A stretch of DNA of 64,000 nt from Octopus vulgaris (taxonomy: Eukaryota), in the NCBI GenBank assembly GCA_951406725.2, contig OX597831.1:40176001-40240000 (forward strand). Direction: 5' to 3'. This document shows, piece by piece, positions 59,634 through 59,962 of this stretch. A program made the translations under genes and the position numbers. The notes under the pieces are model-generated. The model saw nothing but the letters and a program-made list of their open reading frames with translations, did no database searches and was not told the origin of the DNA. The stretch's first letter is position 1; each line of letters starts with the position of its first letter.

Positions 59634-59636
<3 letters not shown>

Positions 59637-59962
59637 ATCTAACAAGAACGTGACAGTAGGGGGTACACCACCGCTGTATAGCCCTAGGAAGCATCGAACG
59701 CCTCCTGATGGCTTTGACACATTTTCCCTGTGTCCTTATATACAGTTACGAAGGGGAGACAAACACCCCCGGCTGCCGAAGCTGCATCTAGGGACACGTG
59801 TTTCAGGATCATTGTCCTTCATCGGCCTAGAGTAGCAGACACTTCGTAAATGTATATAAGGACACAGGGAAAAATGTGTCAAAGCCATCAGGAGGCGTTC
59901 GATGCTTCCTAGGGCTATACAGCAGTGGTGTACCCCCTACTGTCACGTTCTTGTTAGATTGA
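59634..59962. mobile_element. Fold-back element (~120-bp near-perfect inverted arms, 88-nt loop) next to (TA)n; probable Penelope-like pLTR remnant
   Basis: 59634-59753 is the reverse complement of 59842-59962 with about 3 differences. The loop contains a hammerhead motif. Confidence 0.8.
59787..59831 (-). ncRNA. Minimal type I hammerhead ribozyme motif
   Basis: Minus strand: TCTAGG-CCGATGA-AGGA caatga TCCT-GAAA-CACGTG-TC-CCTAGA. 6-bp helix I, 4-bp helix II, palindromic helix III, GUC site; one core deviation (U4C). Confidence 0.75.

Follow-up and report, generated by a model that had tools for sequence, protein, structure and literature searches.

A head-to-head pair of truncated hammerhead-bearing repeats in a (TA)n tract of Octopus vulgaris, likely formed by one Penelope-type insertion

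Insertions of Penelope-like elements are described with an inverted, 5'-truncated copy and a 30-40-bp tail at one end (PMC8557442), and the same layout is given in PMC8969392. In Pen2a_Av of Adineta a TATA box and a tail accompany the inverted pseudo-LTR (pLTR), which is shorter at its 5' end; the mechanism proposed there, self-priming on an antisense template, would be a different route to the same shape (PMC3846280). Targeting of (TA)n is a feature of the Naiad and Hydra clades, the latter with canonical hammerheads (PMC8557442). The purified enzyme of Poseidon_Ac cuts and extends both strands of an AT-rich target, two RNA start sites of reverse transcription bound the tail, and the ribozyme is protein-assisted and not needed for insertion (PMC11167929). 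Retrozymes and Penelope-like pLTRs are close kinds (PMC7229834, 10.64898/2026.07.22.740005). Two hammerhead layouts are distinguished in PMC4209133: the canonical metazoan type I, in which helix I has 6 bp, helix II has 4 bp and helix III is short and palindromic, and the minimal Penelope hammerhead, with a helix II of 7-8 bp, a helix I of 4-5 bp and little or no helix III loop.

The locus described here occupies positions 59634-60033 of the window, the 64,000-nt stretch of Octopus vulgaris contig OX597831.1 that was analysed. It is interpreted as two truncated copies of a hammerhead-bearing repeat that are joined head to head over 400 bp of a (TA)n tract, and likely as the product of a single Penelope-type insertion. 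The features are summarized in Table 1.

Table 1. Features of the locus, in window coordinates
Feature	Position	Strand	Basis
(TA)n microsatellite, left flank, likely target site	59603..59633	.	sequence
Direct, 5'-truncated terminal-repeat copy (ribozyme region, then arm)	59634..59842	-	native contig continuations, 4/4 DNA runs
Left arm, 120 bp, 3' part of direct copy, without tail	59634..59753	-	self-alignment
Extended helix I region	59772..59842	-	folding; loose ends by eye
Type I hammerhead-like motif	59787..59831	-	descriptor scan, Rfam alignment, folding
Helix I, 6 Watson-Crick pairs	59831-59826/59792-59787	-
Core CCGATGA, C4 = 59824	59825-59819	-
Helix II, 4 pairs, 6-nt loop	59818-59815/59808-59805	-
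GAAA	59804-59801	-
Palindromic helix III, ACACGTGT	59801-59794	-
Inverted copy, more deeply 5'-truncated, without ribozyme	59842..60033	+	self-alignment and contigs
TATA-like motif TATATAA in arm (putative function)	59853..59859	+	sequence
One-sided 71-bp tail, family sequence	59963..60033	+	coverage in 4/4 DNA runs
(TA)n microsatellite, right flank	60034..60075	.	sequence

Anatomy and age of the fold-back

Self-alignment pairs the left arm with 59842-59962 (121 bp), with two mismatches and one gap, and leaves an 88-nt loop (59754-59841) between the arms. The near-perfect arms of about 120 bp and the 88-nt loop of the initial annotation are thus reproduced, and so is its observation that the element abuts (TA)n, which holds at both ends. 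Its size of about 330 bp describes arms and loop; the insert measures about 400 bp, the right arm being extended by the tail. With (TA)n on both sides, a target-site duplication is unreadable.

The direct copy starts at 59842, 11 nt ahead of helix I, and is joined head to head to the inverted copy over this one shared base. The TATA-like motif of the right arm has a mirror copy at 59742-59736 on the minus strand, and both motifs face outward, away from the ribozyme. The minus strand of the element folds into one long hairpin (-254.5 kcal/mol, z -27). No second copy was found within the 64-kb window, in which just 12-18-nt matches occur. The window is animal DNA rich in microsatellites, and a MIR856 match to the element was rejected together with other microRNA matches, as these reflect the long hairpin and the microsatellites. 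A 38-codon frame was read by eye in the right arm.

Between the arms, 3 of 120 positions differ (about 2.5%), and the right-arm change at 59924 removes a CpG kept by the left arm and by most contigs. On an octopus scale in which a distance of 0.09 equals 25 million years (PMC13282606), this sequence divergence suggests an insertion age of a few million years. Calling the element young, as was done initially, is reasonable at such a divergence, with the qualification that repair between arms can also preserve identity.

Further fold-backs and repeats are present in the window. A near-perfect palindrome of 176 bp (98.9%) at 53196-53371 ends in (TA)n and carries GAAACACGTGTA on both strands; its turn lies within a short palindrome, and it looks like a head-to-head insertion truncated inside a hammerhead. 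An older fold-back (76%) at 53509-53819 has GAAAC-palindrome-TA near its left end and, about 150 nt away on the opposite strand, TGATGA near its centre. Short fold-backs in which no hammerhead core could be recognised lie at 36470-36800, 51418-51704, 60176-60425, 5541-5669 and 61942-62025. A dispersed repeat, abundant and often arranged in tandem and in inverted pairs, has internal units of 174-185 bp; it is found at 57755-58997 and also at 6011-6427, 11426-12191, 21216-21451, 38204-38451 and 54601-54988.

Copy number, native continuations and junctions

Part of the 400 bp was found in 20 of 24 listed public runs, which belong to 11 studies and carry four species labels. Four DNA runs (four species labels) and four runs guessed to be RNA were examined more closely. 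On 59740-60033 the DNA runs held 2061, 1578, 978 and 737 contigs, mostly 90-99% alike. Single-copy status, which the initial annotation had held to count against a pLTR origin, is clearly contradicted by these numbers. Within each run, summed depth over the ribozyme exceeded that of single joints by a factor of about 1000-5600; as summed contig depth is not copy number and is inflated by overlapping contigs, this is read only as 'thousands'. The sequence is a very high-copy family. The ribozyme had 3-10 times less summed depth than the arm, and tail depth at 60000-60019 was 0.39-0.64 of that at 59950-59969 (by hand, four DNA runs), a step that is suggestive only. Both values would be expected if copies are 5'-truncated and only one of the two ends carries a tail.

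None of the listed runs that contain the sequence is on record as RNA; the four RNA-guess runs contain it too, in contigs that show no start, end, strand or level and so count neither way on expression. Exact-pattern scans gave no matches in metagenome contigs, viral contigs or prokaryote genomes. No description of the repeat family was found in literature searches on octopus or cephalopod hammerheads, retrozymes, U4C or CCGAUGA; Repbase/Dfam, figures or supplements may hold one. A subfamily with different sequence at 59932-59960 is marked by loose ends in the RNA-guess runs as well as in all four DNA runs, and at least two classes of native upstream sequence occur among the family contigs.

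Twenty-four of 326 loose ends were viewed, each with 30 letters of upstream sequence. Those before 59842 (5-18 reads per run, all four DNA runs) show the arm continuing natively into the loop, and those behind 59842 (5-17 reads per run, all four DNA runs) lead into different upstream sequence that is absent from the locus copy. The native order is ribozyme, then arm. Among the 15 joints listed, nine link the loop to the right arm with like polarity and with nine different breakpoint pairs. Their loop breakpoints are 59766, 59767, 59770, 59813, 59817, 59824, 59829, 59837 and 59839, and their right-arm breakpoints fall within 59843-59976. Each was seen in one contig per run, two recurring in a second run; depth was at single-joint level in eight and about fourfold higher (182) in one, and extra letters are listed at the joint in six. 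A tenth loop-arm joint was found in the RNA-guess runs. The other six listed joints comprise three ambiguous opposite-strand joints, one arm deletion, one arm duplication and one head-to-tail joint.

Scattered breakpoints, together with a different native continuation on each side of the junction, indicate that the hairpin was probably not amplified as a unit and was likely formed anew at insertion. Against this, apex deletions of an amplified hairpin could mimic loop-arm joints; they are disfavoured only by polarity (nine joints versus at most two of the mirror kind) and by the native continuations. The initial annotation had offered as its second option a non-coding, ribozyme-bearing fold-back as the family unit; on this reading the whole hairpin would be transcribed and would present the ribozyme in its loop. 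Helices I and II do gain in the hairpin, with pair probabilities of 0.72-0.88 compared with 0.25-0.41 in the loop alone. Several joints have inverted copies that start at 59843/59844, and one joint has about fourfold depth; the clustering at 59843 is forced by the start of the reference arm. A mobile hairpin is nevertheless improbable: breakpoints vary by copy, the arms are unequal, the locus copy has lost the outer 5' strands of helix I, and 0 of 32 listed DNA pieces (of 5430) and 0 of 32 listed RNA-guess pieces bridge 59842/59843 with 31 letters on each side, a count that is weak evidence given the partial piece list. These observations do not support the second option.

Long inverted arms, a lack of ORFs and TA flanks would also suit a MITE that derives from a DNA transposon and bears long terminal inverted repeats, or a fold-back created in assembly. 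Either is very hard to reconcile with arms that are unequal and natively continuous with the loop, and with ends that are asymmetrical. The arms differ at three places, at one of which (59924) the left arm has the common family base and the right arm does not, and like junctions occur in short-read contigs of three of the four DNA runs. Where a MITE would have symmetrical termini and a fixed internal part, a one-sided extension and scattered junctions were found. Hairpins of this kind are likely by-products of Penelope-type insertion that repeat libraries would misfile as MITEs.

The parent of a Penelope-type insertion need not be a long element. By the same insertion mechanism, the RNA could have come from a non-coding retrozyme unit that is cut from tandem monomers and circularised, with a Penelope-like enzyme copying it in trans; this origin is entertained as a tentative alternative. 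Retrozymes typically combine the canonical type I layout with a long helix I (PMC7229834, PMC4209133), they are reported to derive from pLTRs (10.64898/2026.07.22.740005), and the head-to-tail joint (X3, one contig) has its second copy beginning exactly at the predicted cut, 59792. The chance of one joint at the cut site is about 13% among 12 loop breakpoints, and head-to-tail tandem units are absent at the locus and account for only one of the 15 listed joints. One 493-nt contig (X14 record 9) consists of loop and 372 nt of upstream sequence that is not arm, and an X10 contig has at least 255 nt of upstream sequence not matching the arm; a tandem of 150-450-nt units should match the arm there, unless these are solo copies with flank. 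In the upstream loose ends a frame can be read by eye that terminates within helix I and in which about four of nine changes are silent, a stretch too short to carry weight. A longer Penelope-like element is somewhat favoured as the parent, being likelier than a short tandem retrozyme.

The hammerhead-like motif and its U4C core

The minus-strand reading from 59831 to 59787 given by the initial annotation matches the letters exactly in helices I-III, the GUC triplet and the CCGATGA/GAAA core, and U4C is, as stated there, the sole core departure, all other core positions matching. C17 is 59793 within the GUC triplet, and the predicted cut lies between 59793 and 59792. The canonical core CUGANGA/GAAA/NUH does not apply owing to U4C, and the relaxed CYGANGA pattern fits. 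A 6-bp helix I, a 4-bp helix II and a short helix III closed by a palindromic loop were found, which is the canonical type I layout of PMC4209133 and replaces the 'minimal' type proposed initially.

A relaxed descriptor (at most one core mismatch) matched 2 of 20000 dinucleotide shuffles of the 88-nt loop, taken as 59755-59842, one base off the aligned loop; a strict descriptor (helix I at least 6, helix II at least 4) matched 0 of 20000. When the entire window was shuffled 150 times, the strict descriptor gave a mean of 0.007 matches, none with a palindromic helix III. The type I hammerhead-like motif exceeds chance expectation. The Rfam model RF00163 aligns to it end to end on the minus strand, weakly (14.3 bits, E 0.52, 91 bases scanned) and below its gathering score of 34, and is not listed for the motif in scans of 406 or 6001 bases.

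By itself the 45-nt motif folds no better than shuffles (z -0.92), and the active fold lies 3.6-3.7 kcal/mol above the best fold. The pair probability of helix III in the monomer is 0.00-0.01, and its palindrome gives -10.3 kcal/mol as a homoduplex. Helix I gains four pairs past an internal loop (59838-59835/59785-59782), which are present in the fold-back copy. The native upstream loose ends give two more 4-pair stems with 59779-59772 (by eye), and of those upstream strands the fold-back copy retains just the last base. With its outer helix I strands nearly all missing, the locus copy is a clipped product.

A second hammerhead-like motif, unrelated in sequence, lies on the plus strand at 52193-52252. 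It has a perfect CTGATGA/GAAA core, a 6-bp helix I with one G-U pair, a helix II of 4 bp that carries a long loop, and an odd palindromic helix III, and gave no Rfam hammerhead match.

Two variable sites are listed within the 45-nt motif of the family: position 59811, which belongs to loop 2, and a base insertion in loop 3. No variant row was found at 59824 at 3% in the DNA runs or 1% in the RNA-guess runs, and the loose end of a diverged copy retains C4. The difference 59973 T>C takes all the depth of the four RNA-guess runs yet has no row in the DNA-run table, an omission that makes family-wide C4 likely rather than proven. On these sequences C4 appears to be the common family state rather than the decay of one copy. 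In a rarer variant (two reads, X2) helix III spans 10 nt and can still pair with itself, two of the pairs being G-U, and the outer pair of helix II is broken; apart from this variant the core helices are invariant in the listed rows, and no compensatory change was seen there. In one X14 contig the outer helix I carries a two-sided change, at 59774 and its upstream partner.

U4C lowers hammerhead activity considerably in vitro, yet supports viroid infectivity (PMC3088659), and CYGANGA is a routine search pattern in PMC13481778, where C/T variation is reported. The U4C hammerhead is an already known natural variant. The octopus ribozyme may be a dead relic, U4C having arisen in a master copy and the family having spread without cleavage; this is a sizeable minority possibility. 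The in vitro loss, a helix III unstable in the monomer and the finding that ribozyme mutants left in vitro insertion unaffected (PMC11167929) all point that way, and the conservation needs no selection if the family is young. Against a relic count the fact that both listed variable sites lie in loops (2 and 3), the self-pairing still preserved in the 10-nt helix III variant, the two-sided change in outer helix I, and the viroid and search-pattern reports. Strict CUGANGA searches or Rfam cut-offs would miss the ribozyme of this repeat family. The family supplies a natural U4C ribozyme for assay, and nothing in this respect is unique to 59634-60033.

Proposed insertion and comparison with known elements

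The Penelope-type reading begins with a Penelope-like reverse transcriptase/GIY-YIG endonuclease that would cut both strands of the TA tract. Element RNA would then template cDNA primed from each side, with starts at two sites 71 nt apart, which would account for the one-sided tail. One cDNA of 209 nt would run through the ribozyme and stop at 59842, the other, of 191 nt, would halt just short of the loop, and the two ends would be joined over one shared base. Two-sided priming at the locus is proposed here by analogy with the described enzymes. The ribozyme would lie in the loop only because one copy is long enough to include it. The hammerhead of the parent RNA is predicted to be of canonical type I, its helix I long and its helix III weak, with a fixed U4C that would slow cleavage. 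For the weak helix III a dimer (8-bp palindrome) or assistance by protein would be required, and the likely task of the ribozyme would be the trimming of multi-unit transcripts. The locus copy itself is probably a dead end, since its TATA-like motifs face away from the ribozyme.

The first option of the initial annotation, an inverted remnant of a Penelope-like pLTR, fits the truncated copy, the inverted truncated copy and the one-sided tail. The layout of EN+ Penelope-like insertions, a truncated copy next to an inverted truncated copy with variable breakpoints, was recovered, and a predicted hammerhead and a candidate promoter motif are both present in the terminal repeat. Two points count against this reading: the tail is 71 bp long compared with the 30-40 bp published, and no reverse transcriptase or GIY-YIG frame is linked to the repeat within the window. 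No Pfam retroelement family was found in the 114 window ORFs of at least 75 aa that passed the complexity filter, including one over the element. The sole match above the Pfam cut-off among these frames was Pif1_2B, a Pif1 helicase 2B domain (E 2.6e-14) in a minus-strand frame at 14565-15242, which we take to be typical of a Helitron fragment.

It is rather doubtful, though worth stating, that the U4C hammerhead is fixed and yet still cleaves with the aid of a dimer or protein, and that at the same time the family's thousands of head-to-head junctions record two reverse transcription starts 71 nt apart. If so, two-sided priming and ribozyme use would be readable from genomic junctions, some with a ribozyme-cut 5' end. 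The many young junctions of the family provide test material for the formation of inverted end and tail, a step that PMC8557442 and PMC11167929 leave open.

Metazoan non-LTR retrozymes (coral, mussel, axolotl; PMC7229834) resemble the locus in their canonical type I hammerhead, weak palindromic helix III and high copy number, and the locus is likewise non-coding. It differs from them in having no head-to-tail array, and in at least one contig the upstream sequence exceeds the 150-450-nt unit. A viroid with a naturally occurring U4C hammerhead (cited in PMC3088659) shares the core change; here the change is apparently fixed across an animal retroelement family, and the activity is a predicted one. 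Within the Penelope-like elements, both the Hydra and the Naiad clades show (TA)n insertion and inverted structures as at the locus (PMC8557442). Naiads are reported without canonical hammerheads, unlike the locus, and the Hydra clade has them and occurs in molluscs. From Penelope pLTR insertions the locus departs in its missing ORF, its 71-bp tail, its canonical rather than minimal hammerhead and its C4 core. With EN+ Penelope-like pLTR insertions it shares a 5'-truncated copy with an adjacent shorter inverted copy, a one-sided extension that is a putative tail, a repeat with hammerhead and TATA-like motif, and a likely AT-rich or (TA)n target. The locus is likely a new example of this known Penelope-type layout and not a new class of element.
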